Assembly: GCA_046563655.1 (NCBI GenBank) | Contig: CM102283.1 | Coordinates: 4,712,001 to 4,776,000, forward strand | DNA length: 64,000 nucleotides | Direction: 5' to 3' | Origin: Yuukianura sp. NJ FZ-2021 | Taxonomy: Eukaryota | In this document: one piece after another, positions 3,674 through 62,414 of the stretch | How positions within the stretch are numbered: the first letter of the stretch is position 1 | Layout of the letters: each line of letters begins with the position of its first letter | The notes under the pieces: generated by a model | What the model was told of the DNA's origin: nothing | What the model saw: the letters and a program-made list of their open reading frames with translations, nothing else | Databases searched by the model: none | Program-made: the position numbers and the translations under genes

Positions 3674-4467
3674 CCCTTAGTTTCCATTACTCGGGTAGAA
3701 AGTTACTCGGGTACTACCCGAGTAAAAATTACCCGCGTTCCAATGACATTTAGGAAGCGAGTAAGACATGAATTTTGCGCACTTTTTCACACGTGATCAA
3801 CAAAGTTCCAAATTGACTCGTCCAATATTCTCGTTGAGACTGGAGAAGCACAGCTGAGATTTTAAACACACTTACTACAACAAGTACTTTTTGCACTTAC
3901 AACCTTAATAATTGTATCCATTGCTTTCAATTAGCATATTATTGCATACTGCTGATTAATGTATTACTTTGAACGATTAATTAGACCAATATGTCTGTTT
4001 AGCACCTAATTAACCGACTTTGTGCGTGTACATTAGTATAAGTGCTGGTTAATGATTAATCACTGCTGATTGTCCTTGAAATATACTATATTGAACAAAT
4101 TAATCACAAGCAGCAGACACAAAGCAAACGTCAAAACGAAAATGAATTTTAGGAAGTCAGAAAATGTTTAAATCCGATTTTCACAATGAGAACAATAAAA
4201 AATAATAACAATTTCAAATTGTCTCAAGTTTGAAACACGACTCACGTGAGAAATTGTGCGCGAAATTCAAAATCTAACTCGCAACCTCGTTTACATTACT
4301 CGACTTGTTCTACCCGGATAAGATCTTACCCTCTTATCCGGGTAAGAAAGTGAGTTACTCTCTTTCTACTCGAGTAATGGAAACGCGATTGAGTAGGGGT
4401 TACCCTACCCATTTCCATTACTCATTTGGGAGAGTTACTCTCTTATCCGAGTAATGGAAACTAGGCC
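3674..4467. mobile_element. Non-autonomous MITE, PIF/Harbinger-like
   Basis: Imperfect TIRs (TAGTTTCCATTACTCGG ... CCGAGTAATGGAAACTAGGCC), multiple internal TTACTCG motifs, TTA on both flanks. Confidence 0.6.
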
Positions 4468-5802
4468 TTAGGAGATGTTGACCTCGATGACTTTTTGTCC
4501 TGCGCAGGTTTGACCTTACCTGTGCCCACATGTTGCCACGGATGCTGGCAGGAAGTAGCTTACCGTCGATGACCTTCTAGCAATTGTTAAATGACTGTTA
4601 AACAGGATGATCAGATCAGTAACATTTCTCGCCAATGAAAAATTCATGGCATTTAATATAACTTTTAAACAATACTAACGATAAGTAAGTTATTTTAACT
4701 CAACATTAATATTTGTCAACCCTGTATCTAACTTTCTGTAAGAAGCGTAACAAACTGCATGCAGGACGCTTCCCGAGATTAAAGAACTGAATTGAATTGA
4801 ATGGCAAAATAGCAAAAGTTAGGAAATGTTTTTCAACTTAATTGAATCAATGAAAGTAATAATAAAAATTACAACGATGTAATGTATATGCTATATTGTA
4901 TTTGAGAGTTTAATGTCAGTTAATTTCGCCGCTTTTCTAAAAGTTCCGAAACAATCACTTGCAAGTTGCAACTTTGTTTGACGGATGTAGCAGTGACAAG
5001 ACAAAGGCACAAGGTTCTAAAATCAAAATTTTACAATTTCATGGTAACATGGAAATGATAAAGCTGAACATTTTCTTAAATGGAATTTTGGCATCTGGAA
5101 ATCTGAGATAAGGCTCAGTGAATTTTTGACTCCTTGGGTTCCGTGTTTACTTTTTCTCCAGTTTTATCGTTAAGCGTTAACTTGTTTGGTCAGGATCAAG
5201 ATTCAATCTTACTAAACGTAACGAGCCTTCCTTGCCCATATTGCGTACCGAATGGAAATTTGTAGAACAGTTGTACCGGCTCTCCACCCCTTTTCCAGTT
5301 CCCTCCATTGTAGCCGCCGAACTTCCAGTTCTGGTAGGAACCAATCCCAGTGTTCTCGAAGGTTCCTTCTTCAAAGAGCCAAATCCCAAACCTCCGGTTG
5401 TATATGAATTCCCTAAAAATGTAATTGATGTTTAAATGTTCAATCAATCCGTTACTACATACCAAGGTAAATAGAATACTTATAGGTACGGTCCCTTAAA
5501 ATTGTTTTTTCAAAACCGAGTTGCTATGGGATTTTTTTCACTTCGTGTTCACTCATTTACAGTGCTGTTCAACATTTTCATCATTTTAGTCTCGATACTT
5601 TCGCCGCAAACTTAAAAATAGCTTAAAAACTCGGATGAACCTGTATTTTCACTCGAAGTGACGTCACTCGAGTGTAATTGTAAACAACTCAAGAATCGGT
5701 TTTGGTCGCTAAGGCATTTTTGCCGCCCCCTGACTACATACTACATACATACAGAGTTAAAAATAAAACATACGAATATGAATATGAATATAATTATTTG
5801 CT

Positions 5803-6048
5803 TTACTCTTTGAAATCCGACCAGCCCTTCAGTGATTTATGGTAAGGCTGCTCAAGGTTGAAGATCATAAAGTGGAGACGAAGTCCTTTTTTGTTCAGGT
5901 CAAGTTCTAATTGCTCTCCAAGAGACTTGACAGCAGCCTCCAGCTGGGCCCCATCGCTATTGCCGGTGTACTGCAATACCTTTTCCTCAACTAGGTTCCA
6001 GTAGTCCTTCAAGTTCTTGGGGTCAAGATTTATCGGATTGACCGCCAT
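5803..6048 (-). CDS. Small hypothetical protein (81 aa), divergent from CDK1
   Basis: ATG-initiated ORF with protein-like composition, head-to-head with CDK1; family not recognised. Confidence 0.4.
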   Translation of the reverse strand: MAVNPINLDPKNLKDYWNLVEEKVLQYTGNSDGAQLEAAVKSLGEQLELDLNKKGLRLHFMIFNLEQPYHKSLKGWSDFKE

Positions 6049-6535
6049 ATTCCTTTGCTAACGCGAATAAATAAACCACCGGAAACTTAAATTATTTATA
6101 TTATATAATTATTTATCTATGTTTTGTTATTGCAATTAATTGCAACTGCTTTGGTAAATGAATTTGAAAGTGGGCTTGGTTTGAGTATTTACATCATTTC
6201 GCATTTCGCTGCTCTGTCGTACTGTCTCCGCCACACGCGCTACGCGCCAGCTGCGCGGCGCCACGATAGTTACTATTTTTCGTCGGATCCGTATCTGCCA
6301 ACTCCTAGGATTAGACTCATCGTCTTTGTTTTGGTTTTGTCCGTTTGTTCTTGACCATTTTTTTTATCTAAATCTTTTACTGTGGGTTTTACTCTTTTAT
6401 TACAGTGAAAAAAGCCTGGATTCTCATCCGTCCGCTGTCGTCTTTGTTACAACGAATTACTAACCACGACCAGTCATTAAGTTGCCGTATAGGTTAATTA
6501 AATTTAGTTTCTCTCAAAGCAGAAAGGTTCCAGAA

Positions 6536-7899
<1,364 letters not shown>

Positions 7900-19271: not shown

Positions 19272-19443
19272 CCATACCTCCCCCTCCTTTCGTCAACAAT
19301 ACTCATAACTTCACCATACAACAAAACAACCATTAAATATAATAAAAACTCTAATATTAGAATCTTCCAAACCTCAAAATCTTGGTTCAGTAAAACTTTT
19401 AAATTTAACAGGCTCTAATTCAACCCTATGAGCTCCTGGGAAA

Positions 19444-20112
19444 ATGGATCCAATCCTTCCTCCCAGACTCACCCTCTGGCACAAGAACACCCAACCGGAA
19501 GATACGGTCGCAATTGACTGCGAATTCGTCTTTCTAAAGTCCGGATCTGGAAGCTCTAGAGTTAAATGTGCTACAGTTGACATTGTCGATCATAAAAGTA
19601 TCGCTATTTATAGTGCAAAAATTTACCACCCTAAAAACTCTTATAAAGTTAATTATCACACAAAAAAAGTTAATGGCTTCCGAACTGACTCGTTTGACAA
19701 TCCATCCTTCAAAACTCTCGATTTAGTTACCTCCGAAGTACGTTCACTTTTGGAATCAAAAACCTTAGTAGGGTTAGCGTTAAAAGGCGATCTAAACTCC
19801 TTATCTTTGCAACTCTCGGAATTCAAAACTATTGAACTTCAGGAGACATTTTTTCGTTACAAAAGAAACAAAAATGGGGAGCCCCAACTAACAAATAAGG
19901 GAGAATTCATACCTGAACCTATGGGATTTTCTACAATCCACGAAAAACTTTTTGGGGAACCACTTTACTCCTCCGACTCTACTCACTCGTCGTTGAAAGA
20001 CGCGCAAGCAACAATGCGTATCTTCCAACACTATTTTTACCCGGAAAATTCCACGGGGCCCAAGTCCGCTGCCTGTTTACTCTCTGCTACTCTTGATTCT
20101 CTTCACCTCTGA
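19444..20112 (+). CDS. Intronless DEDDh 3'-5' exonuclease, REX4/ISG20-like
   Basis: ExoI AIDCEFV, ExoII LVGLALKGDL, ExoIII HSSLKDAQATMRIF; all D-E-D-H-D positions present. Confidence 0.8.
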   Translation: MDPILPPRLTLWHKNTQPEDTVAIDCEFVFLKSGSGSSRVKCATVDIVDHKSIAIYSAKIYHPKNSYKVNYHTKKVNGFRTDSFDNPSFKTLDLVTSEVRSLLESKTLVGLALKGDLNSLSLQLSEFKTIELQETFFRYKRNKNGEPQLTNKGEFIPEPMGFSTIHEKLFGEPLYSSDSTHSSLKDAQATMRIFQHYFYPENSTGPKSAACLLSATLDSLHL

Positions 20113-43130: not shown

Positions 43131-46100
43131 TGAGGAAGGAGGAGTGTTCCTCGACACATGTACTCATACAGACACAGTCTTCATCTCATCTTCCATCTAT
43201 AGAGTCCTACTTTTAAATTCTCAATTTTAGTAACTTCCAATCAGTTAATTATTAATAATGTAAAGTTTTTTAAGTTTGATTACAAATAAATCATTTAGTC
43301 AATTATCAATAAGTGTCTAGAGTCTGGCATTCCATCCAACATTTTTCGACCTCCTCTGAATTAATGCATTATGAACATGCATTCATTCTTGGCACAAACG
43401 GTGGATTAGTTAGATTAAATGGATTGATTAATAATAAAATGGCACAAATTATAATAAATACTGGAAAATCAGTGACGTTGACGTTAGTTCATCCTAAGTT
43501 TGTTGAGGAGCACAGGCCTTTAAGATTTTCAATTTCTCTTTTTGGAATATGACCAACAAGAGTTGGTGTGAAAACTTGGTTACAAATTGGAGTAGGTTAG
43601 AAATTAAAGTTAATAATATAAACGTTTTTTTAACGCATATATTGTTCCTATTCTTGTGCTTGATTTATTATTGGGTTTGGACTGCTTTAAGTTTCAATAT
43701 ATTTCACTTCACATTTCAAAAGAATTAATTACTTGGCTTGGGAATGAGCTTCCAATTCAACCAATTCGTCTAAACGTTTTTTTAGAGAATAGTTTTAATA
43801 TGCATGAGATTCAGCGACAATTTTCTGACCAGAAAATTTTAGTTTGTCACTTAATCAATTTTGAAAAGACAAAAGCAATTAAACAAAGTTCAAAGAATAA
43901 AACAAATCAAACTGAAAGGGAACGCATGCAAGAAGATCGGATCAGTGCATCCAAGGAATTTATACACCCAAGCAAACAAATATTATTTAAAATGACAAGA
44001 AACGCAACCAAGAGGATCGGATCAGTGCATACAAGGGGTATAATAACCCAAAGCAAGAATTTTTCTTTTCAAAATAAATCAAATTGCAACAGGAAAATAA
44101 TCAAATCAAAATAAACAAAAATGATAGTAATGGCCATTTAGTTAAGTCTAGGTTAAGTGACGCATAATATTCAGATCTCTCGTGTTCTAAAGATCAGACA
44201 CGCCCAATGGATCCATTTGTACAATCTGTACATAAAGTAGTAATTCCGTCTATGTTATGTAAGCTAATTAAAGTTAAATTTAGTTGGCCAAATTAGTAAA
44301 TTAAATCAAATTGAAGTTAGTGAGGAACTGGTTCAATTGGGACTTTATATGCCCCCTGTTCAGTTGAGGAGCGGCTATTCTTTAGAATTCTTGCATTTTC
44401 CAATTTTAAATGTTTCCGAAGATGCGATTTTGATTCCTGCTGAATTAAAAATTGCAAATATTATTTGTTTGGAAAATTTGCCAGTCGAGGATAACGTTAT
44501 GAATTTAACTGAGGAAATTAATGACGTTACTGAGAAAATAAACGTTTTGTATGATGAAACTCATGTGAAGAAATTTTTTTGCTCAAATTTGAAACGCTGC
44601 AAGGTTAGGAAACTTGTTACGTAAGTACCAAGACGTGTTCGCAAAACCTGAAGAAATTGGAAATATTACATGTTATCAACATAAAATTACGTTGTTAGAA
44701 AATTCTTCACCAGTAAAACGCTCCCCTTACCGCAAGGCACCTGATTTGGAAGAATTTGAGAGAAATAAAATAAAAGATTTACTGAATTTAGGAATTATAA
44801 CGTCCATCTCACTCTCCTTGGGGTTGTGGAGTAGAAATTGTTCGTAGAGGTCACAAAGACGGAGTTAAAACGGAACCGAGATTTTGCATCGATTATTGAA
44901 AAGTCAACAAGGTCACGGGGAAAGATGCACATCCATTACCTAACATCCAGTCTATTCTTGATTGGATTGCATCTAGTGCCAATAAGATTTCTACTTTGGA
45001 TGGCGGGAAAGGTTATTGGGCAATTTCTATGGCAGATGAAAGTATTCAACTTACTGCATTCATAAGTAAGTCAGTATAATTCGAATTTGTGCGACTATCG
45101 TTGGGACTATGTAATGATCCCGCCACTTATTCTCGCTGCTTAGCGATAATATTGATGGATTATTTGTGGACTTGGTTAATTAGTTATTTGGACGATATTA
45201 TTTTTAGTAATTTAACAATTGAACAGCATATTGAAGATCTGGAATTAGCATTTCAACGATTTCGCAAGTATGGACTAAAAAGAAGTGTGAAGAAGAGTCA
45301 TTTTTTGAAAGACAAGATTCGAATTTTGGGTTTTATAGTTTCAAAAAATGCCGTGGAAGTAGATCCGGAAAAAAGTAGAGCCATTTCCGAAATTAAAAAA
45401 CCATCAAATGTTAAAGAAATACAACAATTTTTAGGTACAGTCTGTTTCTTTCGAAGATTTATTTATAGATATTTTGATTTGGCCAAACCTTTGACTATGT
45501 TGCTCCTAAAAGATCAAAATTTTATATGGGAGGATGCACAAGATAAACCTTCTAATTCTCTAAAAAATGCTGTAGTTAATGCTCCTGTTCTTGTCATTAC
45601 GATTCAAATAAATCCATTGATGTCGCCACTGATAGTTCTGGATTTGGCGTTCTAGCGTCCTTACTTCAACCTGATAAAAATGAAAAGGAGAGACCCGTTG
45701 CTTTCTTTTCCCAAAGTCTCAATAAAACACAAGTTAAATATAATAAAACGTATCGAGAACATCTTGTTATTTTACAGGCTTTACAAGTTTTTCATCTGTA
45801 TATTGATTCCAATTTTTTTTACAATATATACAGATCATGAACCAATTTCCGAGTTAAATTTTGCTAAAAATGAATTCTTCTCGTTTAGCTAGATATGCTT
45901 TGATTTCACAGCAGTATGATTATAAAATTGTTTATCGAAAAGGCTGTTTTAACAAATTAGCGGATTGCTTGTCGCTGTTACCTCTTCCTGTTTCGTTTGA
46001 TGAAAAAGAATTGTTGACGATTGCTTCAGAATTATTGAAAAACTGGCCAAAAGGAGTGTAAAATCAAAATTTATTACTAAAAATAAAAAAATTTATAACA

Positions 46101-49100
46101 CAAAGTTTGGTTATTTGAGAACAGTCGTACCTAAAGTACCTATAGACGTCGTTGTCGAAAGTGCCACTTGCGGGTCAGGTCATGGGCATTGGGTACGCTC
46201 TCAGCGGGAACAAAACTGGAGGGGCCTCACTGGTTCATAATGGGAATGACAACATGGGGCTGGGTGCCTCAGGGGTTACACTACTGGCAGGTTTGTGTTC
46301 TTAATTTTAGATTATCCTTCCAGGGTGTCTGGTTTTTTTTGGTAATGTGGAAAACAAGAATGAAAACCTGTTTCGTTTTTGTTCAAACCCGGTTGTACGG
46401 TTTCTTTGTTTTAAACCAATTCCTCACAGTTTTATTTCGTTCCTATTTCGCGATGTACATAGGATTAGTGGGACATAATCGAGAATAAGTGCCATTCCTT
46501 TGTGGTGCATTTACACTACATTAGCAGAACATCTTAATCTACTACTTTCCGTTCATTTTCATGTTTTCCATCAATTTATTTGCCATTTCCAAATTCTGCT
46601 GTCTCTCCGTTATAGTTGCGCACCGTGTGAGTTACTCGTAGTTTGGTGTATTTTTTCTCTGCAGGTGGTGGGCTGCCTGGAGCTATTGTGCCGGAGTGCC
46701 TGGTGATGCAACGGCGGAGTTGATTGCTGAAATCGAAAAAGAAAACAGTCCATTTCAGCTCCTTCAACTGCTAGTAAGCCAGCGCACAGAAAAAGAATTG
46801 AAAACATTGGTCCGGGAAATTGGATCACAACATTCAATCACAAGAAGACAAGTACTCCAGATGCACCAATCAGGCATTGACTAAACACATTCCCCGACAA
46901 AATTCTGACTATTGTTAATTAATTCTGACTCACTATTAGTTTTGACCTGTTTCACGAATTTAGAGATATTTAAGATTTTAAAACAATATAATCATTAATA
47001 ACCGTTTAAATCTTTAAACTTCAGGTATGATGAATCTACCGGCGTCTCTCTTCCTCATCACTCTCTGTGGTGGTGGTTTCTCTGCAGTGGCAGCACCAAG
47101 CGGTCTGGCGAAGATTGGCGCTCCTCTACTTAACAATATTCTAGCGTCGTTCCTCGGACGTGTTCGAGCTAATAATGGTAACGAGTTCGCAATGAAAAAC
47201 TGATTCTCCTACAACGATGTTTATAGTAATAATCTAATGATGTCCATCATTAACGCCGCAGCAAACCTAAAGCAAACAGAGGAAGAGGCAAAATAAACGG
47301 AGTTGATTGAGACCGAAATTCACGAACACAAACAACAATTCTATATTCTTGTGGGGTGTTGATCTTTCTGCTAATCTTTTGGTACATTCATTACTTATAG
47401 AAAAAATAGTAGAGACATAAAAGAACTCAGTAGCATAGCAGCGATCGAAGAGTACGCAAGAGGACTTGCACTTAAATCTTTAAAGGGCCGTAGAGAGGGC
47501 GAGGAATAGCGCCGTCGACGAATTTTTCAAAAATTACAGATCTTATGTAATTTTCTTTTGAAAGGGTTAATGGATTATAAGCTCAGAGTAGATTAAGCAT
47601 TGGCTAGTATATTCCAAATTAAATTCATTCTGTTAATTACAAATATTATAGTACTACTATCCCATAAAATTCGAAAATCTATTCCCCAAACATTCATAAC
47701 TACAAACTTAACAAACAATTTAAATTTACGTAAATAGGATATTAATTAATTGAACCAAACATGTAATACTAATATTCAACCATTTTGAGCTCCATGGGCT
47801 GTGGGCCCCCAAGGAGCAATAAATCAATCAAAATCAAAAAACGTGGAAAACTCGAGACTTTCCTATTGTCGATCGGTACTGGATGAGTGCCCTCGGCATA
47901 GTAATTATTCCCTTACTGCCTCAACGTGTCCATTTTCCGCGGGTCTACGTTGACAATGCTGACAAAGTAGGGCTGAGGTCAGTCAACATGACCGCCAATT
48001 CTGGAATATGTTCATACATGACTCATACCAACATCCGAAAGATATTGCCGACTTTGATTATGAAGATTTTGTTCTGGACTATGAAGCGGACTTGGCCATA
48101 TACCGCCGACGCGCCATGCAAAGCTATCTAAGATTCTTTGTAACAGAACCCAACCCGAAGATGGTGAGTTTACTCACCTCCGGGATCTGTTCCACATCCA
48201 ACGGCAACAACCGCTCGACCTCGAGATCTTCTGCCGACCTTACAGTCGGCTCAAGGATCAAGCTGTCACCAAAATTACTTACGGTATTCCCCTACGTCTC
48301 TTCGTCAACGACCTCAGCTCTCCAAACTACTTTGACACCCTAGTGGACAAAAGCAAGATGGTCCACCTCCAATCAATGGCTAGGACTATCTCTCCCGATC
48401 TCATCGATAATATTTATAATAAAAGATTAATATAAAATTAATTATAAAAGATTATATTTATATAATATTTGAAAATTAGGACTAGCCAGTACTTTGCGGC
48501 TATTATAATCTAACAGGCTACTGGAAATGCAGTCCATTCTGGCCACCGCACTTGTGGCCACACTCCTCCTCTCATCCCTCCCTCTCTCGTGGTGCTCAGA
48601 ACACGTGACTGAGGAGGAAAAAGTTCAACGGCGTTGGCAAGTGCTTGTTGTACCTCGTAAAGTTAGATGTGCCTCACAGACCAAATGGATAGTTGCCGAC
48701 TGATCACTTTGCACTTTAAACTGTAGTTAGTGTAAAAAGAAAAGAGAATTGACCAAAACTTCGAACGCTTTCAGGTAAAGAAATTCCTGAAAGTAGATGT
48801 TGTATCAGAAGTTGCGAAAAACAGACTCTCGTCTTTTTGGCAAAAGGCGCTTCTATTTCAGCCAGTCTTTCTCTCGGTACGGCCTGAAAGTAGGTCACCT
48901 CCCACCTCTACGCTTACGCGTGGATGCGAAAGTGCGTGACTCCCTCCAGCCAAAACTACAATTTACCAACCGCACCCAAAACTGGGCGTTGGTCTGCTTT
49001 CCTATTATGTTCGCGTTCGCAAAACTAGGCCAAGTAAACCCCCCTTAGGAGAGAACCGTCTACGCTAAATGTTATACCCGAAGGTGCACATATGCCTCCC

Positions 49101-49330
49101 CGTGAGACTAACTGTCGAATCTAGAGAAAATATGAAAGAAAATATACTGATGGTTGCAAAAAAGTAGAATACTAAATTTGGCATTGCTAAAATTAGTGAC
49201 TACTTCAGCACTATCCTACACCCTACTATTTGCCGGCAATTGTATTAATTACTGCAAATTGGAAAAAGCTACTTTAGATGTTCTTGTTACTGTATCTTAT
49301 TTCTAATTCAAAGCGTAAATGAACGATAAC

Positions 49331-49446
49331 GCCGCCCGTTCCTTGAGTTGCTTGTATTAAAACTCCGCCCCTTCCTTGAGACCTGTTCCCTAAGACTCCG
49401 CCCAATCCTTGAGTCTTTTGCCATAAGGCTCCGCCCGTTCCTGTAG
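49331..49446. repeat. Four-copy 33-bp-period repeat with core CCGCCCNNTCCTTGAG
   Basis: Cores at ~49331, 49362, 49395 and 49428, with variable spacers. Confidence 0.8.
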
Positions 49447-50826
49447 TTCATTAGTACTATACCGGGAAGAGCCAGAGTGAAAAGTCATCAACAGGCCCTG
49501 GCTCGTGCTACCCCCGTAGCCAGGATGGGATGAAAAGTCATCTTGGAAGTATGGCAACACTGTAGGTGCGTATGCCCTATTCACCCTGGCTAAGTACTAC
49601 TATTGTAGACTCCAGTGTTGCCACTTTTTAAATATTTTACGCACTTTTTAATCCCCCTGGCCTATCAATGTCGTACACATGTGTAAAATGCAGTCAGCAT
49701 GCTATATGCAATTTTCATCTTCCATACACAGAGGAAAGGAAAAACAGGATCCACCACACCCAAGTGGTGCAAATTGTATTCAGTGTTGGTGGATATCCAC
49801 TTTTTCGACATTTCATTAACGGCTGGATATCCAGTGGGAGAAATGGACGAAATGGATTAATCCAAAGGGGCGGAGCTTCGCCCGCGGCATTTGAATTATT
49901 TAAATACAATAGGCTTAAAAACTGGAAAATATAGTACCTACAAAGTACAAACACGAAATAAATAAAGTTTTCAAATACGTTTTAAAAAACTAATTAATTT
50001 TACGGTGAGGGAAAAGTTTTTTGACCATTTCGTACGTTTAAATTTGAATTTTTTTGAATTTGGCGCTAAATTTTTGATTTCTTCCATCCACTTTTAGTTT
50101 CGTCCATTTGGGGCACATTTCTTCCAGTGGATATCCAGTGGAAGTGGCAATTAAGCCACTGGACGTTTTAGCATCCACCTTGTATGTTCTATTTTTCGGA
50201 TTTTTAGCGAATTTTATCTATCCCGTTATCAAATTTAACAGTTTCAAGTTTTCCGGTGCGTAAAGTGAAAATGACCTTAACCCCTGCTACACAGAATGTC
50301 TCTACGGGTGCAATTGACGTATACTTAAGTGAAAGTGCAAATTAAAGTACAGTGAAGCCATTACCCACTCTACAGCTTATACAAAGACCAATTTAGTCTG
50401 TGATTCGGACTACGTACGTTGTTAATTATGTGTACATAATTTTACCTAGTGAAAAGAAAAGAATCCCGAGGAAGCCAGTGAAAGTTTACATAAGTTTTAA
50501 CTTGTTTCTACGGAAACAAGATGGGGTTGTACTCTTTTAGCTGGCGGTCACTGTATAAGCAAATTCTATAAAATATAGCTTCCATGAACTATCAACTTTT
50601 CAGTATATTTTTGATGTTGATCAGATAAATTTTCTACTTAGATTTATTAAATTAATTAACATCGCCCATCTTCGATTTTGTTGCAACAGTTGGAGCCCCC
50701 CCCCCCCGTGATTTTCTTCTGCGGATTTTCGTCCAGAGTCACCTCAAACTTGCCACACGTGTTTCACTTAACGTGAAAAAAAATTTAACATAAATCACTG
50801 GTAGCAATTTAAATACCTTTGCAAGG

Positions 50827-53618
50827 TTACACGGAATTGAATCCCTTCTTAGGTGCTGGTACTCGTGCGAAAGTGCATCCTGGAGTTCGACAGTGAATAA
50901 TTTCTACGCGACACGTTTTACAAAGAAACTTTTTGCAAATTGTGCATCTTTGCCTTGCAGTTGTTCTTTTTCCTCTTGCACAAAAAGTGCAGTGTCCCCT
51001 TTGCGGCAGTACTTCTGCTTTACCAGTCGCACCAGCTACTGCATTAGCTATGCGAGACGCCATCGTCTCTTCTATCTGTACTTTCACGACTTTCTCGTAA
51101 CCAAGTTTTTCAAGAACCTGAAGAACATACGATCTTACGCCGGGGTTTCTTTCTAGTCTAGTTGACATTAGCGGTTCCATCAAGCCTTCAGAAAGGTTCC
51201 GCAAGAACGCCTTGCGATTCATACGCGAAATATCAGTCGAGCTGTTGTGCATCCTGAAAATAGTGTTAGCATTGAGTCCTGCAATGTCCAGAAGCGCATG
51301 AAAGATTTTCACTGGCCACCTAAAATGCAAAACTTTTTTTCGTTATTTTATGAATTGTTTCTTGGTATAGAACCTCATTTAGTGAGGGGTTGACACACTA
51401 ATGTGTACCTTGCAGTTTGCCTCTGACAGGAATATTTGGCAATCATTTGATCTGCAGTATCCACACCAGCTTTCGTCATGTTGTAGTCTAGGATCATTCT
51501 CGGTTTATATCGATGGTGTGAACTGATCTCAGCGGAATGATGCTGAGTTGACAGGAGTAGCACGGTTCTGTTCTTTTTTGGGACATAAGAAACCTACACC
51601 ATAAGAAACAATCCTAAAAAAGTATTCGTCAAAAATACTGTATATTTTTAAATTCAGACCAAATGCATCTACGATTACAAAATATAAAAAACGCTCTTAT
51701 TACCATCGTAAAGTCTCCTTGGAACGCAAATACTGAAGAAAGCTCTTCTCTTCCTTTGGGATCCACAAACTTCGGAATGACATCCATACGTTTGTGATTG
51801 AGTGTCCCAAGCATTGACATCTTTTGCTTAATCAGTTCTTCACCTAGGGCTTTCGACGTAAAGAAATTGTCCATCGTCACTCCACGTCCAGAACCAAAAT
51901 ACTTCTTAACCAAATTCAAAACAACTTTTCTCCCATGTTCTCTTTCCGTTTTGCCATCAACTTTCCCTTGATAAAGTGAAATCTTCAAGACGTAGCCGGT
52001 TTCAACATCGCAAACAGCCCACAACTTCATTCCAAACCTTAATACCAAAAAATAATCTATTAAACTTTTCATCAATAGTGGGTATACGACTTACTTTCCT
52101 GGCTTCGACTTCATGTAAACTCGAAACTTGGCACTCCCTCGAAATTTCACAAGCATTTCATCCACAATGAGTGTGTCGTAGGGACGCAAGTGTTTTTCCA
52201 TGTTTTCTACAAAAGGCTCAAATACTTCAGAAATGTAAGAATACTTGGATTCCTCGTCTTCCTCGGCTTCGTGTTCTTTTGTTTTGGACATGCGTGCTAC
52301 CTTGTCATCAAACCTTAGAAAACTGTTGATTGATCTGAATCTGTTACTGGCCATCGTGGCCGCAATAGTGGGAGTAGAACGTAGCTCTTCTGATGACCAC
52401 GCTTCAGTATAAGATGTATTGCTGAAAATAATGTGAAAACGGATTTTACTTTCTTAACATCGCTGCACTAATACTATTGTGCACTTTGTGTGTCCAATTC
52501 TCACAACTTTCTGAAAAGATCTTAGGTAATTTAATTGAACTAAGGTTCAGTAAGTAGTTCAAACAACCCTTGGTACATATCTAGAACATATTTAGTACTG
52601 CAGGTTCTAGAACTAAAAAAATGGCTTGATTACTAACTATCTTTTACAATTTTGAAAGCAATATAAAAAGACAAAGAACAGTACGCTCACTCAATAACTT
52701 TTTTGTTTGAATTTTCGAAAAATAACATTTTTTCTGAATAAAATTTCACATGCTTTCTTATAATTCGAATTCTGGAAATTTAAAAGTTAGAAACTTGCAG
52801 TCTGTATCCAACTCTTCATTGGCGTAGGCGTTTCATAATAAGGGTGTACTGATTATAATTTTTAAAAAGTCTTGAGCGAGGTCTATGTGTATAAGCAATG
52901 CAATTTCAAAAAAATCCGAATTTCCGTTAACTTAGCAAGTGCAAAGTTAGTACTTGCGTTATATATGAGATAAGGAATTTTATTTTCTAGTTAGCTAATG
53001 CTTACCGTTTGTTGTCGGCTCCCAAATAAAGGAGGATCCCGATGTAGGCATACATTTCATCAATGGTGATAGGCGACCATTCTACCACCACACCCGCTCC
53101 GTTTTTCTTCTGCTTCTTTTTCAATACATATGTGGCATAGGCGTTTGTATGTTTGACAATGGTTTCGACGATGGTCGGTGGGAACATCAGTTTAAAAATC
53201 TCAGTTGGAGTCAGAGTAGTGTCCTTGGCAGGACCCACCAAACCGCCTTTCTCTCGGAGAATTTCATACGCCCTTGTCTGTCTGATTTGGTTGGGTTCCT
53301 TGGTTGTCCAAATAGTTTTGTCTTTAGCAGTGAACGTTGCTTCCTCTTGAATTACTTTCACAAACGTATGCTCCGGCTTTTCGTATCTAGAAATGGGGCG
53401 ACGAGAATGTTTGGGTTTGAAAGTGTGTTTCTTGCAAAGTTCTGAAATAGAGACAGTGTCCTCAGCATCTTTGTTTTGATTGGCGTCTGGTTCTTGTTCG
53501 TCCGAATCGCTTTCGCTTGATGTGGATTCGAGTGCATCACTTTTTGAATTATCCAGGATACAATCGGAAGCGGAACCATCGTCTTTATCATCGTCAAATT
53601 CTTCCCCAGAATCCGCAA
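50827..53618 (-). CDS. piggyBac-family (PGBD) transposase, intact; exons 53618-53006, 52421-52095, 52037-51704, 51593-51409, 51319-50827
   Basis: IVDEMLVKFRG, YMKSKPGK|FGMKLW, MDNFFTS, YNMTKAGVDTADQM, R|WP, C-terminal CTFC..CTIC..CKTC; all four introns are GT-AG and phase-compatible; no stops. Confidence 0.92.
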
Positions 53619-53770
53619 CTGAAAACATTTTCTTTAATTTAAATTTTCATTATATCTATGAAATGTTTTACCTAATGAAATCCCATCGAGTACCTAACCC
53701 AAGCTTTCACCGTTAAACTCTAGATAATTCGTATTACTATGTTTTTTTCTAAACCGTCGTAAACGCCATA

Positions 53771-54690
53771 GATAAGTAGCGAAAGGGAACTCGAGGAAAC
53801 AACCCGGAAGTACAGCACTTACGGGTTCGGTTATTTTAAACCAGAAACCAATCACCCCAGACTTTGATAAACTCATCTGCGCAGACAAATTGAAAATCCT
53901 CCCCGAGGTTCCAAAGTTATAGACACACGCGTAACATGACGGACGTCATTTTGCAAATTCTGAAGTCAATCTAAGGTCAGTAAGGTCACCCTCACAAAAG
54001 TTGTTTGACGAAAAGCGTGGAAAACCTTTTGTAGAGATAATTTTCCCGATTCCCTAAAAAAAGTATCTCATCTTGACCTTTGACCCGGAAGTTGCCCATT
54101 TCCGGTTTAGCCAGAAACCGATTAGTCACCCTGGAGCACGTTAATGGCCGGTATTTACTTTCGCTATCTTTCCCCGGGGAAAATGTGTCGTAGGACACAT
54201 GGCAACGCCAAATCATCGATGATTAGTTAGATCTAACTAAAATCCGATTACGAGTACGACACGCAAATAATCATCAAATAGTAGTCTTACGACTTTTCCC
54301 CGCAGAAAGCATCGGGTGTGGAAAGTAAGGATCAGGCATAAGTTAATCTGTGAAGACATTGAAAATCGGTCCAGCGGTTTCGAATATATAAACGCGCATG
54401 GCATGAGGGGCGCCATTTTTCAACTTTCGGCGTCTATATCTCTAGAATCGTACGTCAAAAATGAAGGCACCTTCACAAAAGTTGTTCATCTTAATGAGAT
54501 AAACAACTTTTGCGGAGGCTTTTTTAGATTTCCACTAAAACTATAGTTCATCTCCAGACCATGTCAAGTTTATCTGTGAAAGCAGATTGAAAATCTGCGC
54601 AGCGATACCGATGGCGTTGTTTGCAGCGAACTAACAGAATCACAGACTCGGGAAAATCATAAAGTAGCGAACTACTTTCGCTACTTAATA
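53771..54690. mobile_element. Non-autonomous Helitron/Helentron-like (HINE) element
   Basis: AAGTAGCGAA at the 5' end (53774), an inverted partial copy near 54160, and terminal hairpin AAGTAGCGAA-CTACT-TTCGCTACTT (54662-54686); AAAATCGGTCCAGCGGTTT motif. Confidence 0.6.
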
Positions 54691-54754
54691 ATGTGTTTTC
54701 ATATCGAACAATTATTGTATCCTATGGAATGTGATATCAAACATTGTGACTTAC

Positions 54755-56019
54755 GCATTGTTTTTGAACTACAAGGGACAGGATTTCTTTTATTATTGTC
54801 CAGCAACGGATCCCGAGGACAAACTTTTCGTGAATGGAATTTCGACAATTCGGATTTCAATGATTTTTTGCTTCTAGATTTCTTCTGAAGTTTGAAGTCA
54901 ATTTTCCTCTTAATGGTAGGGAATTCTCTTTGCTTTGGTTTTTTCTTGAGCCGAAGTGTTGCACTTGAACGGATTGCTACATCGGTTTTTGACTTTTTAC
55001 TAAATAGAATTGAACAAAAAGTTGATTTTGTGATTGTGGAGAAATGTTTTCGAATTGACAGAAAATACTTTGTACCTTGGAGAACCGTAGTCGCTGTCAT
55101 CGCTAATACTTGGATCATGTCGTACAGGAATGAACGTAAAATCTTCATCCGCCGCACAAGTCACTTCAGGCTCAAGCACTGGGGGCATATCATTATCTTC
55201 GTCACACGTATTTAAAATGGCATTATTGGATGTTGCAGTTTCTTCAAAAATTTCCAAATCTTTCGTATCAGTTGATGCGTCAGTCAAAATGACGGGAGAG
55301 TCGATTGCTTCAAGTTTTGGCCTTTTGTCAACAATCGAAAAAACGTTTTTCTCGAATTGAAATTGAATCATCGAAGGCATGGACTCAGTAGCAAAAGCAG
55401 TCGGATTCCGATTCATTTCCAAGATTTTTTGCTGGAGCAGTTTCTTATTTGAATGCTCTAAAAGTAGTGAAATGTTCTTAATATTTTGTTTATAGGTTAA
55501 ATCTTACAAGATTCTTTGTGACTTCTGCTTACCTTCCATTACTTGGTTTTGGAAAATAAATCTGAGGTCATCGTACTCAATTGAACTCTCTTCTGGAGTT
55601 TTCTTCGCGTCGCTTCCATTAGTTTCAACACAGATAGCAACAGACTCTCCAAACTTACTCAGTTTTTGTCTAATTTCAGTTTCAATTTGAAACAGCTTCT
55701 CCCGGAGGATGATGATTTCAGTGACTGCTTTAAGGCAGGACGCACAAAACGGTAGGTTAGTATCATCTAGACTCAGGGACTCCAGTGACTCCCATTGTAC
55801 CCTTAGCAATTGACAAATGACCTGCAGTATATTTGATTTGGTTTCAGTGTTACTGGACAATCCCTGGCATTCCAGAACGACAGAAGTACAATCATGAAGA
55901 GCTCTTATTTTTGTACAAGTAAAGCACAACTGAATACTTGAAGCAAACTTTGACTGAACTCCATTTGGAATATAATTGTTATGAATATGATGGGAAACTC
56001 TCGAATGTAGTACTGACAT
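54755..56019 (-). CDS. ZAD-like domain exons (56019-55533, 55457-55076, 54999-54755)
   Basis: CFTC...CASC pair followed by a helix; phase-compatible GT-AG introns; a GTAAGT donor at 54754; no C2H2 exons follow. Confidence 0.7.
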
Positions 56020-56532
56020 TTTCAAGAAATTTTTCTGCTACTGCTGCAATAATCGTAAATATTTGGTAAAATTTTGAAATTCACGTTATGAAAACTTGGT
56101 GTTCCCGTTGTATGTTTTTCTCTCGATGTACCGGCCCCTATAACGGTACTTTTTACTATAAAGGCTCTGTCCTTGGCGTGGCCTCAATTTTTGTTTACTT
56201 TTCCTCCGTGTGCTATTTCAGAATCTATGGACGTTCTGTTTATATCCATGCGTGAAGCCTGTGTTGTTGCCTGGCGTGACGCTTGTGTGTCCTGTGGGTA
56301 GCAAGAGATGCTCCAATGCCAGGCGAAGGCAACTCGAAACAAACACCCCTATCTTTTCACATAAACTAAAACTTAAAGTTGCATCAAGGGAGATTTCGCA
56401 GAACTTTACGCATTACGTATTAATTTTTAATTTAATTTAAGTAAAAGTGCGCAATATACATGAATAATTTATGAAAAGTTCAGAACTACCGACTTTGGTT
56501 CTCATATTCGCTTTAGTTTTCCCTCCATAATT

Positions 56533-57052
56533 CGAAGCACGCCAATACATCAAAAAAAAGACATCAACTGAAAAGACATCAACACGAAAGACATCAACCA
56601 GAAAGACATCAACAATGCAAACACATCAACTATAAAAACACATCAACCCAAAAGACATCAACACAAAACACATCAACAATGCAAACACATCAACAATGAA
56701 AAGACATCAAAACTAAAAGACATCAACAGAAATTTTATTTTTATACCCGGATATAAAATTTGGGATTCTTTTTTTCAGAATTTTGAAAAAAAAGTAAGTC
56801 TGGCCATACTATCACAGTTAGCAATACTGATGAAGTGTGGCTAGCTTAGCCTGCGGTACCGCGCCGAAGGCGCGGCGTTAGGTTTGGTAAAGCACGCCAT
56901 AGGGATTACGTCTGTAGGTTCGATTGTCTAAGTCCGGCTTATTAAATTTTCAAAATTTCAAAAAAAAAATCCTTATTTCTTTTCTTTTGATGTCTTTTAG
57001 TTTTGATGTCTTTTCAGTTGATGTCTTTTTTTTGATGTATTGGCATGGACCC
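56533..57052. mobile_element. Mutator-like MITE with ACATCAA subterminal repeats
   Basis: GCCAATACATCAAAAAAAAGACATCAAC inverted at both ends; 8-9-bp TSD CCATAATT(C); central CGCGCCGAAGGCGCG hairpin. Confidence 0.8.
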
Positions 57053-57152
57053 CCATAATTCCTTAAATAAACAGAAATTATTTTTCCAGTGTATACTTTT
57101 ACGTGGCACACCCAACCGTCTATAAATTTTTGAAACTTTTAGTCGCACCAAC

Positions 57153-57560
57153 TACCAAGTGTTTTTTAATTTGTGTCCAAGCCATGTATAAGAGCGCAAC
57201 GGAGTTGGGTGGAGTTTGGATGGCGGGAACCGAAAATTTGAACGGTTGACTGTTCAGCTGATGTGACAAAGGTGTTCACACCTGGTCTTGTTTATTCTCA
57301 TCCTTTTACTCATTCTTTTACTTAACTTTAGTCAATTGTTTTGACAATTAACGTCCTTAATAAATACTTTACAACAATTAACTAAAGTTAAATAAAAGAA
57401 TGAGTAAAAGGATGAGAATAAACAAGACCAGGTGTGAACACCTTTGTCACATCAGCTGAACAGTCAACCGTTCAAATTTTCGGTTCCCGCCATCCAAACT
57501 CCACCCAACTCCGTTGCGCTCTTATACATGGCTTGGACACAAATTAAAAAACACTTGGTA
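57153..57560. mobile_element. Near-perfect foldback MITE, TA-flanked (Tc1/mariner-like)
   Basis: ~185-bp inverted arms TACCAAGTGTTTTTTAATTTG... / ...CAAATTAAAAAACACTTGGTA with a short spacer. Confidence 0.9.
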
Positions 57561-57985
57561 TTAAAGTAAAATCATTTGGTTGTAATGATGCAGGAAAGTG
57601 ACACATTTAGCATTTCCTTTTATTATTAGAATTTTATTGCAAAATTCACAATGCGAAGCTTCTAATAGCAATACAAGTCTGACTTTCCAACAAAATATTG
57701 CACAATAAGTTCGGGAACCGAAGAAAGCGTGACAAAGAATTGTCATTTCAGTTCTACTTAACGTCATAGATTATAATTATAAACACACTTTGTTTCAGTT
57801 GTAACCAAGTTTGTTTAACTCGAAATTTCGATTATTTTTGCTTAGAAGGTTTATGTCAAAACTCCTTTTTTCTTGATTTGAAATTTTTTGAACCATAAAT
57901 CCTGCGCTACCCTTACACGCTTCCGTTGCGTTAGCAACTCGAATTCAAAATTATATAATTCCTATAGCAAAACAGTAAGAAAAAA

Positions 57986-58501
57986 CCAAGGTAACTATTT
58001 TTATAAACATAAATACACACGCGCTTTCTAAGGTAGTCTCACGAGCGGTTTTTTAATATTTTTTTGCGATATTTTTTGGCGGGGCGGATTGTTCGGTTTC
58101 CAAGGAAATAAAGCTGTATAAAATTCGTGCAAAGGTTGGTTGAGGTACCATTGATGTGTTAGTTGTACCCAGTGTTCATTATTTTACGCAAATCAACTAT
58201 TTGTCATTGAGTTGCATTGAATTCGTAGTAATTATAAGCGTAAAATTTGTTTACTCCATTTTCCAATCCTAAAACCAATGCAATACATCGCAATGTACAC
58301 CACTAGCCCGATGATTGGGTACACTGGATGGTCACAATTGAGGAATTTGATTTTGTACTCCGACCGAAGGAAAACGTTGTCAGAGGAATGTTTAGAAAAC
58401 AAACAATCCGCCCCACCAAAAAATATCGCAAAAATAGTTGAAAAAACCGCTCGTGAGACTACCTTAGAAAGCGCGTGTGTATTTATGTTTAGTTACCTTG
58501 G
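57986..58501. mobile_element. Foldback MITE, copy 1
   Basis: CCAAGGTAACT..GCTTTCTAAGGTAGTCTCACGAG / CTCGTGAGACTACCTTAGAAAGC..AGTTACCTTGG. Confidence 0.8.
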
Positions 58502-58550
58502 AAAAAACCAATATTTTCGGTGAGACAACAAAATTCGTATGCAATTCGTA

Positions 58551-59023
58551 CCAAGGCAACTAAACAAAAAGACACACACGCTTTCTAAGGTAGTCTCACG
58601 AGTCGTTTTTAATTGTTTTTTGCGAAAGCATATAGTGGGGTGGTATCCAAGGCGATAAATTCGTGCTAAAGTTGGTTGAAGTAACGATATGTGTTACATC
58701 ATCAGTGTTCGATATTTGGCACAAAATCAACTATTGCAATTGAGTTGCAGTGAATTCTTAGTAACAACTATTATAAGCGTAAAAGTTTTTCTTCCATTTT
58801 CCAACGCTAAAACCGATATAAACTACAGGTTTGATGAGTGGTTACACTGGGTGGTTACAGCGAATAATGAATTTACTTTCTACTCCAACCGAAGGAAAAC
58901 GTTTGCACAGAAAACTTAAAAATAAGCAATCCACCCCACTATATACTTTCGCAAAAACAACTGAAAAAACCGAGCGTGAGACTACCTTAGTAATGCGGTG
59001 TGTCATTTTGTTTAGTTACCTTG
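58551..59023. mobile_element. Foldback MITE, copy 2 (same family, in tandem)
   Basis: Same ends and homologous internal sequence as 57986-58501. Confidence 0.8.
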
Positions 59024-59362
59024 ATTTGTAACAAATTTGTTTTTTCGTGTTTTTTTTTAAATCGGACTTATGACAAAACCTCTTACGCCATTTGTAGAAA
59101 TGGTCGCCATAGCAATCTTGGTTGTAACTAACAACCTGTTGGACGGATAATGGAATTGAAACTTGATTGAAGATTCTTCTGAGGCGTTGGTACTCGAGCG
59201 TACGAACATCTTGTTGTAGGCAATGGACGATTTGTACTCGACATATCTTTTGCAAACGATCCTTTGTCAAACTTTGCATCTGTCTTGAGCTGTTTTTTTT
59301 TCCTTTTGGACAAAATTTGCCGTAAATTGGACGCATGGAGAACGACTAGCAAATCGAGAAAA

Positions 59363-59960
59363 AGGATGGCACAAAGTCCATAAGAAACTGGACTTGGTGG
59401 TATTCGAACGAAATTTTTACCAGCTGTTTGGGTCAATACTGGGATCATATGTTCAAATTTTCAGCCCCCTGGAAACAAGAGATCACGGGTAACAGGGGGT
59501 CAAAGGTCACGATATGATCCTATGACAACCCCATGCAAGTAGCATATTGTTGGAAAGGGCTTGCCCTTCTGATTCAGAAAATGCATATATGTCAATATCT
59601 ATGACGTAAGACAACTAAGCTGTGGCGTCTTTTAGTGCAAAACGTAGGTCGCTGCCTCTCGACTCCATCACCAATCTCAAAAGTTTGAAATTTAGTGCGC
59701 TATAACTTTGTTGTCTTACATCATAGATATTGACACATATACATTTTCTGAATCATGAGGTCAAGCCCGTTCCAACGATATGCTGCTCGCATGGGGTCGT
59801 CATAGGATCATATCGTGACCTTTGACCCCCTGTTACCCCTGACCCCTTGTTTCCAGGGGGCTGAAAATTTGCACATATGATCCCAGTATTAACCCAAACA
59901 GCTGGAAAAATTTCGTTCGAATACCAACAAGCCCACTTTCTTATGGACTTGTGCCATCCT
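59363..59960. mobile_element. Foldback MITE with long inverted arms
   Basis: GGATGGCACAA..GTCCATAAGAAA..TTTCAGCCCCCTGGAAACAAG inverted at 59850-59960; arms ~250 bp. Confidence 0.85.
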
Positions 59961-61323: not shown

Positions 61324-62414
61324 TCTATAGCTCAAGTTTTTTCATTACCTCTACATTGCACTCAAACTCGTACAATAACAACGTAGAAGCAGGCGGCTAC
61401 TTTACGTACCCGCAGTATCGTGGCTCCGCAAAACTGTTTTAGTTTCGATTGCACTCAAAATATTTATAAACAACGGAGTTTTGATCTGGTCATTTTCTGG
61501 CAGTATGTTTAATTACGTTGTTATATTAACACTGATCAGAGGGTAGAAAATCCGGCTTAAATGTTTAATATGTGAATAGTGCATAACATGGGTCAAATTT
61601 GCATTCACAAGAAAGTTTTGATTTTAAAGAAACGATATTCGACCCCTACCTCAGAACGTACAATTTTGTGCATGATGCAATGGGTCTTTGCATTTACTAG
61701 AAATTTTTATAATTTTGATTTTAACAGGCGATATTCGACCCCTCACTCCAGCGTTTATTTTTGTGCACGTTGCACACTTATGACCAATAGGGATACATAA
61801 ACGTTGAATTGTGCATTTACATAAACCAATTTTGATTTTTAGGAAACGACATTCGACACCTCCCCCCTAACGTTCAATTTTGTGCACGATGCACACAACT
61901 GAAAGTTTTGTGCATGGTTGAGAACAATTATTGTGCATCAAAATAATTTTGAACAGAGTCAAATCTGAGCCCAATTTGAACAACATTATGAGTTAAGTTA
62001 ACGCTGTTCATTATAATTTATAATGTATTGCCATGGCAACATCGATAACACATTGTGTGTATCTTGTTCAACACATTAACAGCCTCAATTCAGTGCAGAT
62101 ATTGTGGCCCTCAAAACTGAAACATGACTTTGGTGCAATTAAACTGTAAAATTGCCAACCCAATTTTGGCGCAGCTCATGCACAAAATAGCACTTCACAT
62201 CCACACTAAAATATTGAGCGACGTTTCAGAGCATCAATTCGATAAAAACGGCCTCTCATTTCTTCGGCCTCTCATACTTTTGAGGCAAGCCGGTTTAAAG
62301 TCGCATCAATTGTCAACCACCTCCAGAAGACCTATGCTCAACCCTTGAGCATTGCCCTACCTTGTTTATTTTGAGAAACGTTTTGCAACTTCTTTATATA
62401 AAAATAATTTTCAA

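Follow-up and report, generated by a model that had tools for sequence, protein, structure and literature searches.

A probable chimeric gene joining a ZAD-like zinc domain to a piggyBac transposase in Yuukianura sp., with tandem relatives in a second organism

Organization of the locus

The gene considered here lies on the minus strand of a 64,000-nt stretch of the Yuukianura sp. NJ FZ-2021 genome (assembly GCA_046563655.1, contig CM102283.1, positions 4,712,001 to 4,776,000 of the forward strand), which is referred to below as the window. Between positions 56019 and 50827, eight minus-strand exons join into 3066 nt, which can be read in a single frame through 1021 codons up to a terminal stop. 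Each of the seven introns that separate them is of the GT..AG type. A preliminary description of this locus, made from the sequence alone, had proposed the same eight-exon model, and its coordinates, phases, total length, and open frame are all present in the sequence. We consider it likely that the eight exons constitute one gene for a 1021-residue chimeric protein, namely an old fusion that has been inherited as a gene and whose transposase has been domesticated. In terms of the separate parts of this reading, the existence and conservation of the fusion are well supported by comparison of related sequences, and its domestication is probable.

The first three exons encode the portion that precedes the transposase. 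Exon 1 (55533–56019) opens with the ATG at 56019, encodes residues 1–162, including an entire four-cysteine domain, and ends at a phase-1 donor (GAAG/GTAAGC). Exon 2 (55076–55457), which is entered in phase 1 and left in phase 2, specifies a fast-evolving middle region that terminates in ..DYGSP(R/S), and exon 3 (54755–54999) supplies a basic linker with 27 Lys or Arg among 81 residues before its phase-1 donor (ATGC/GTAAGT). The transposase is encoded by exons 4 (53006–53618), 5 (52095–52421), 6 (51704–52037), and 7 (51409–51593), followed by exon 8 (50827–51319), which carries a putative cysteine-rich domain at the C terminus (residues 966–1006, positions 50991–50875) and the stop codon (50829–50827). 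An AATAAA on the same strand at 50643–50648, ∼180 nt past the stop, is likely the polyadenylation signal.

The transposase half

Exons were translated and scanned one by one against Pfam, and exons 4–7 each scored above the curated cut-off of the DDE_Tnp_1_7 family (22.4 bits). Specifically, exon 4 matched positions 1–52 of the 349-position profile (40.5 bits, E = 2.7e-10), exon 5 positions 59–151 (62.4 bits, E = 6.2e-17), exon 6 positions 154–262 (69.3 bits, E = 4.7e-19), and exon 7 positions 271–328 (24.8 bits, E = 1.7e-05). This agrees with the identity given to this half in the preliminary description, and because the four exons run in order along the profile, the introns between them interrupt real coding sequence.

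Among solved structures, 6x67, the transposase of T. ni piggyBac, gave the best match, and piggyBat (9c0f) came second. Three aspartates of the window protein, D663 in exon 5 (codon 52162–52160), D741 in exon 6 (codon 51871–51869), and D841 in exon 7 (codon 51461–51459), which lies within the motif GVDTADQ, align with D268, D346, and D447 of 6x67 (residue numbers counted on the alignments), which we take to be the catalytic residues of that enzyme. These Asp motifs are also retained in the metagenome units described below. Exon 8 contributes a Cys/His pattern at residues 966–1006 whose ligands are conserved with the metagenome loci L001 and L004, and Pfam zinc-finger families match it below threshold only. 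The cysteine-rich domain of piggyBac binds transposon-end DNA. By these alignments, the second half of the chimera is predicted to be a piggyBac transposase in its entirety, in which none of the catalytic residues has been lost.

Relatives with the same architecture in a second organism

A scan of metagenome contigs gave 239 pattern matches, and seven loci among them encode relatives of the N-terminal domain; a corresponding scan of viral contigs with alignment A2 gave 142 pattern matches and no relative. When the spliced window protein was compared with the metagenome loci by tblastn, L004 was found to contain the N-terminal exons at 4056–5000 and then the transposase exons at 5167–6885, and L001 the N-terminal exons at 4563–5469 and then transposase exons at 5948–6262. 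Both loci carry an additional transposase 3′ half upstream, and the units therefore stand in tandem. The upstream units are probably preceded by N-terminal exons as well, since the head of L001 is overlapped by L005 (162 of 166 bases) and that of L004 by L002 (96.8% over 249 bases). The fusion genes of the metagenome are arranged head to tail, ∼1.3–1.6 kb apart. A further locus, L007, holds a truncated copy of exon 1 that adjoins a 171-nt inverted duplication.

Protein identity between the window gene and the metagenome units varies widely along the chimera. The most conserved exons are those of the transposase core, with 55–56% identity in exon 5, 63–68% in exon 6, and 71% in exon 7; the remaining values are 41–49% for exon 1, 32–38% for exon 2, 39–41% for exon 3/4, and 36–38% for exon 8. 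At these distances, six of the seven window introns occupy a shared codon and phase in the metagenome units. In units L004-B and L001-B, codon and phase agree with the window for introns 1 (phase 1) and 2 (phase 2), such that the exon 1 donor as well as the acceptor and donor of exon 2 match in place and phase in both loci, and introns 4–7 match in position in L004-A, L004-B, and L001-A. With respect to individual splice sites, the intron 7 donor of L004-A (L004 1825–1860) reads GC instead of GT, the corresponding donor of L001-A being GT.

The seventh intron, intron 3, separates the two halves of the window gene and has no counterpart in the metagenome. In all four units where the region is visible, the counterpart of exon 3 (starting S-K-Q/K..) continues without intron or stop through an acidic stretch and extends as far as the window exon 4 does. 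The sole internal Met of this region lies ∼45–50 residues past the junction in three of the four units, and L001-B has a Lys there; the window exon 3 exceeds its counterpart by 56 residues. Because the exon 3 counterpart is continuous into the transposase, the two halves are one old coding unit in the metagenome organism. Comparison thus upholds the chimera proposed in the preliminary description, with respect to shared exons, intron positions, and the continuous linker and transposase of the relatives; the name ZAD that it gave to the N-terminal partner is only partly supported, as discussed below.

Gene family or mobile element

Selection was assessed from the ratio of nonsynonymous to synonymous substitution rates (dN/dS) among the metagenome paralogues. 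The ratio is lowest in exon 6 (0.07–0.10), amounts to 0.21 in exon 5 and 0.35 in exon 8, and ranges over 0.18–0.34 in exon 1, 0.17–0.45 in exon 2, and 0.40–0.51 in exon 3/4. Both halves of the chimera are under purifying selection among these paralogues. All of these values compare paralogues of a single metagenome, and ratios below 1 are also expected among the copies of an active transposon.

The latter point bears on an alternative in which the transposase belongs to a mobile or recently mobile piggyBac-like lineage that natively possesses an N-terminal zinc domain and introns, with the metagenome copies representing copies of the transposon. Such an origin would account for the occurrence, within one metagenome, of several copies whose proteins are 58–100% identical to the query P0001, and for the intact catalytic triad and putative cysteine-rich domain, and the dN/dS values are compatible with an active family. 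A spliced intron is moreover known in Pokey, an element of the piggyBac superfamily (PMC3849761). Against this stand, first, the ends. No inverted pair flanks the window gene within 49000–57500, no inverted repeat of ≥13 nt is shared between 56020–59500 and 47500–50826, and no shared inverted ends flank the units or occur in the spacers of L001 and L004. One low-complexity inverted pair in the L004 spacer (2886–2903 and 3880–3897) was considered as a candidate for transposon ends and rejected, as it is not shared with L001 and lacks TTAA.

The limits and arrangement of the copies likewise differ from what a transposon would be expected to leave. Nucleotide likeness between metagenome units starts at the ATG or at most ∼330 nt before it and ends ∼250 nt past the stop, near an AATAAA; the copies therefore have limits resembling those of untranslated regions, and they follow one another head to tail. 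In addition, Pokey has a single small intron (PMC3849761), which compares poorly with six position-conserved introns at 32–71% protein identity. The window itself holds one intact copy and one decayed fragment. The fragment, at 59149–59323 on the minus strand, 3.1 kb upstream of the gene start, repeats the last part of exon 8 (cysteine-rich domain and C terminus) in decayed form, with a frameshift and several lost cysteines (tblastn E = 3e-6; blastn 70% identity over 152 nt, E = 3e-16), and is a trace of past duplication in the window. Because of the head-to-tail arrays, the limits of the copies, the six conserved introns, and the lack of ends, the evidence favors a family of genes over an element that moves by cut and paste, and we regard the transposon alternative as improbable.

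Intron 3 and the junction between the two halves

The sites that would join the two halves in the window are exactly those given in the preliminary description. The exon 3 donor (ACA ATG C/GTAAGT, 54755/54754) and the exon 4 acceptor (TTTTCAG/TT GCG GAT, 53619/53618) are both in phase 1, and their joining creates the codon CTT for Leu372, yielding ..CSSKTM-L-ADSGEEF... The intervening intron 3 (53619–54754) measures 1136 nt and is the only lineage-specific intron of the seven in the comparison of the window with the metagenome units. Its guanine-plus-cytosine content is 0.397, as opposed to 0.26–0.32 in the other six introns. No tRNA and no match to an Rfam family were found in it, nothing in the metagenome loci resembles it, and it showed no further copy within the window. 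It contains three segments with weak similarity to one another (repeat families D5, D7, D8, and D10). These features fit either later inserted material or an original capture intron that was lost by the other lineage.

Several observations count against a single product in the window organism. The preliminary description had named two points at which separate products could end or begin, and both exist in the sequence. If the exon 3 donor is unused, the frame 54699–55160 reaches a stop at 54699–54701, just after the donor, which would close a stand-alone N-terminal protein. An in-frame ATG at 53626–53628, three codons 5′ of the exon 4 acceptor, could start a stand-alone transposase (MFSVADSGEEF..), such that two separate products are possible. 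Intron 3, which is absent from the relatives and unlike the other introns in base composition, could have been inserted later and would not necessarily be spliced, and the 54755-to-53618 junction in the window organism is so far a predicted one. Furthermore, all comparative loci come from one metagenome, in which no contig bears a complete unit. Searches of 5.8 billion proteins for longer relatives with exon 1, exon 4, and the ten-sequence alignment A3 scored nothing, although such blanks are weak evidence.

These points are the substance of a second alternative, in which an N-terminal zinc-domain protein (exons 1–3, ending at the 54699 stop) and an intron-bearing piggyBac gene starting at the 53628 ATG are two separate genes, the ancestral fusion having been split by the insertion now seen as intron 3. 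The presence of both end points and the lineage-specific, compositionally distinct 1136-nt insertion are in its favor, and the splicing of intron 3 is itself a prediction. On the other side, intron 3 has the best donor of the gene (GTAAGT), a good acceptor (TTTTCAG), and matching phases at its two ends. The two halves form a single exon in the relatives, and both are intact across the eight exons of the window. Separation into two genes is, like the transposon alternative, improbable, and we rank it just behind.

The weakest alternative, a decaying or non-functional chimera whose frame is open by chance after a recent capture, could invoke the lack of a long annotated relative, but it is very unlikely given that a 1021-codon frame over eight exons would hardly survive by chance, that the architecture is common to the window and a distant organism, and that both halves are under purifying selection among paralogues. 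The preliminary description had also entertained a gene-trap insertion, which can be rejected as a recent event in view of an architecture shared at 32–71% identity, four conserved introns within the transposase, and the absence of terminal inverted repeats. As for the empty searches, the lack of any long annotated protein with the N-terminal domain among 5.8 billion leads us to conclude that the fusion family has probably been overlooked by annotation.

Nature of the N-terminal domain

The domain at the N terminus of the proposed fusion protein spans residues 32–118 (55666–55926, minus strand) and is defined by two cysteine pairs, C32/C35 (codons 55926–55915) and C92/C95 (codons 55746–55735). 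The preliminary description had spread a CxxC...CxxC domain over three exons. The domain is indeed present, but all four cysteine codons (55926–55735) lie in exon 1. The four cysteines are invariant in all 10 aligned sequences, and the second pair sits in a conserved LPFCxxC...LRxKLxxxE motif.

A HMMER scan of 1.84 billion representative proteins recovered five homologues of the exon 1 domain, with E values from 1e-24 to 3e-4, and all five are short open reading frames (ORFs) from unannotated assemblies. Four are single-exon ORFs that end a few codons beyond the same exon boundary, and the fifth, P0005, stops earlier.

With respect to the identity of the domain, the Pfam family zf-AD (PF07776) is the sole family matched by more than one of the 10 aligned members. 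It is matched by three, in each case starting at the first Cys pair and covering almost the whole profile (from 2–69 to 2–74 of 75 positions), and every one of these matches is below threshold. A further lead comes from the ESM-Atlas, where the named clusters nearest to P0002, one of the homologues, bear zf-AD. The first of these clusters (score 0.90, 181 shared features) has zf-AD on 30% of its members and the third (score 0.89, 184 shared features) on 72%; feature scores of 0.9 arise by chance in 4–10 cases per 100.

Other results speak against a ZAD. The window exon 1 reaches only 10.1 bits (E = 1; residues 32–118, profile positions 2–74 of 75) against a curated zf-AD cut-off of 28 bits, the best match among the members has E = 0.033, and seven of the 10 have no zf-AD match at all. 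The ZAD fold comprises a zinc knuckle, a short first helix, and a long, amphipathic second one. The Atlas model of P0002 is poor, with a predicted local distance difference test score of 0.59, and a structural search with it returned nothing above a template modeling score of 0.33. Finally, no solved ZAD was found among the PDB sequence and profile matches (E ≤ 10) of the window exon 1, profile A1, P0005, and P0003, the few matches being unrelated proteins. Since solved ZADs are only ∼25% identical to one another (PMC7913770), this last negative is weak evidence against the assignment.

The ZAD label of the preliminary description is thus supported in part, by the invariant cysteines, the profile-spanning matches, and the Atlas lead, and is left short by the missed cut-off and the absence of a solved ZAD among the matches. 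On balance, these sequence comparisons make it moderately likely that the N-terminal domain is of the ZAD type.

Two other sites in the window touch on this domain. The best non-self match to the N-terminal-domain profile, at 61842–61937 on the minus strand, covers the first Cys pair (QLCxxCTK; E = 0.12) and could be left over from a further tandem copy upstream, or be due to chance. At 1391–2952 on the plus strand lies a second gene with a CxxC...CxxC N terminus followed by C2H2 fingers, the latter matching Pfam zf-C2H2 at 2704–2871. It looks like a ZAD zinc-finger gene by its sequence layout; no zf-AD match was obtained for it, and an hhalign comparison of A3 with its ORF at 1391–1789 gave a probability of 1.3%, which is not significant. 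The two C2H2 motifs at 2704–2871 are the only ones in the window and none occurs on its minus strand, in agreement with the earlier remark that the C2H2 array that usually follows a ZAD is absent from the chimera.

Other features of the window

Two inverted-repeat structures lie just upstream of the gene. The first, at 56538–57047, resembles a miniature inverted-repeat transposable element, with 52-nt inverted ends (94% complementary) made of 15-nt tandem units, and it is adjoined by a foldback at 57213–57500 with 128-nt arms (98% complementary). Elsewhere, all on the plus strand, 6916–7005 is an exon for a CDK1-like kinase segment (best PDB matches cyclin-dependent kinase 1, E = 4e-8), which marks the window as eukaryotic nuclear DNA, probably from an animal. 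Two ORFs, at 19432–20112 and 45080–45655, gave Pfam matches, one to the exonuclease family RNase_T (E = 2.4e-7) and the other, a reverse-transcriptase fragment, to RVT_1 (E = 6e-11).

Proposed architecture and mode of action

In the preferred reading, that of a single fusion gene, the protein would comprise, from its N terminus, a four-cysteine zinc domain of the ZAD type, a middle region that varies in sequence, a basic linker resembling a nuclear-localization signal, an acidic stretch, and the piggyBac transposase. The last of these would consist of a DDE/RNase H-like core with three catalytic aspartates and, at the C terminus, a DNA-binding domain rich in cysteine. The fusion would be inherited as a gene and not as a mobile element, as suggested by its host-type introns, the lack of transposon ends, and the tandem-multiplied relatives elsewhere.

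In terms of function, the N-terminal domain would be expected to bind zinc and to dimerize as ZADs do; the ZADs of Drosophila form homodimers (PMC7913770, PMC12947871). The Lys/Arg-rich linker (27 of 81 residues) is a putative nuclear signal, such that the protein would presumably act in the nucleus. There, specific DNA would be bound, and possibly also cut, by the domesticated piggyBac part, and the N-terminal domain would either bring two molecules together or attach them to partners on chromatin, in the manner of SCAN in PGBD1 or KRAB in the KRAB-transposase fusions. A more far-reaching proposal, which we offer tentatively and consider possible but doubtful, is that the gene represents what the SCAN- and KRAB-transposase fusions are in vertebrates, but in an invertebrate. 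Here, a dimerization domain of the ZAD type and a piggyBac transposase that is still catalytically competent would have come together, either one having captured the other, and would have founded a family of sequence-directed DNA cutters or chromatin tethers that expands in tandem like the ZAD zinc-finger genes, serving, for example, in transposon control or programmed DNA rearrangement.

Comparison with known systems

The preliminary description knew of no described ZAD-PGBD example, and this agrees with the open-access literature. Searches of open-access text found no description of a ZAD-piggyBac fusion (including PMC13269885, PMC5381638, PMC12062965, PMC10027918, 10.1101/2020.05.07.082677, and PMC12947871). 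It would stand as a variant of its own among the host-transposase fusion genes. Such genes are well documented in tetrapods as a route to new regulators, with 94 captures on record, the majority with KRAB (10.1101/2020.05.07.082677), and the searchable papers treat host-transposase fusion as a matter of vertebrates. If a ZAD-like domain is indeed fused, in conserved form, to a full piggyBac transposase, this would show the same route in invertebrates, and the partner domain, if a ZAD, is one that plays a SCAN- or BTB-like dimerization role in insect zinc-finger families. The present case differs from most known fusions in that no part of the catalytic core, including the three aspartates, has been given up, and in its tandem multiplication in one organism. 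It renders directly testable whether the fusion protein still cuts DNA, and which targets it acts on, and would be relevant to specialists in transposon domestication and in ZAD proteins.

The nearest parallel is offered by PGBD1, where a piggyBac transposase has been joined to five exons that lie upstream and carry a SCAN domain (PMC5381638). As in PGBD1, upstream host exons of the window gene would provide a dimerization domain typical of zinc-finger families, and ZAD has itself been likened to SCAN and BTB as a dimerization scaffold (PMC12947871). Unlike PGBD1, the window gene has a four-cysteine ZAD-like domain in place of SCAN, and its host is not a mammal. The transposase part of the window gene also retains four conserved introns and the catalytic triad, whereas PGBD1 is said to have lost transposase function (10.1101/2021.05.19.444448).

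In the window gene, the splice acceptor immediately precedes the transposase frame, three codons past the in-frame ATG, and this placement matches the capture mechanism described for CSB-PGBD3 and the KRAB-transposase fusions of tetrapods. Cosby et al. found such an acceptor in eight of nine cases and also described later expansion by duplication (10.1101/2020.05.07.082677). These fusions mostly retain the DNA-binding domain only, joined to KRAB or CSB, whereas the window gene appears to keep the whole catalytic transposase with a ZAD-like partner. In contrast to them, a fusion of the window type is also old enough for the junction intron to be absent in one lineage. PGBD5 resembles the window gene as an intron-bearing, long-domesticated piggyBac-derived gene (PMC3902484, PMC5381638), but it is a chordate gene for which no captured host N-terminal domain is described in the portions available of PMC5381638.

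With respect to the N-terminal half, the closest resemblance is to the arthropod ZAD-C2H2 proteins, in which four invariant N-terminal cysteines are likewise followed by a long stretch of helical character and there is a flexible linker, and whose genes have expanded in tandem in particular lineages (PMC7913770, PMC12947871). The window protein, unlike these, has a piggyBac transposase where they have a C2H2 array, and its N-terminal domain misses the zf-AD threshold. A last parallel is offered by proteins with THAP and zf-AD, which form an ESM-Atlas cluster at rank 29 (a lead, the cluster name being automatic) and in which a ZAD is also paired with a DNA-binding domain. THAP itself derives from a transposase. 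Those proteins have only the small THAP DNA-binding domain, without a catalytic transposase core, whereas the window gene is predicted to join its ZAD-like domain to a complete one.

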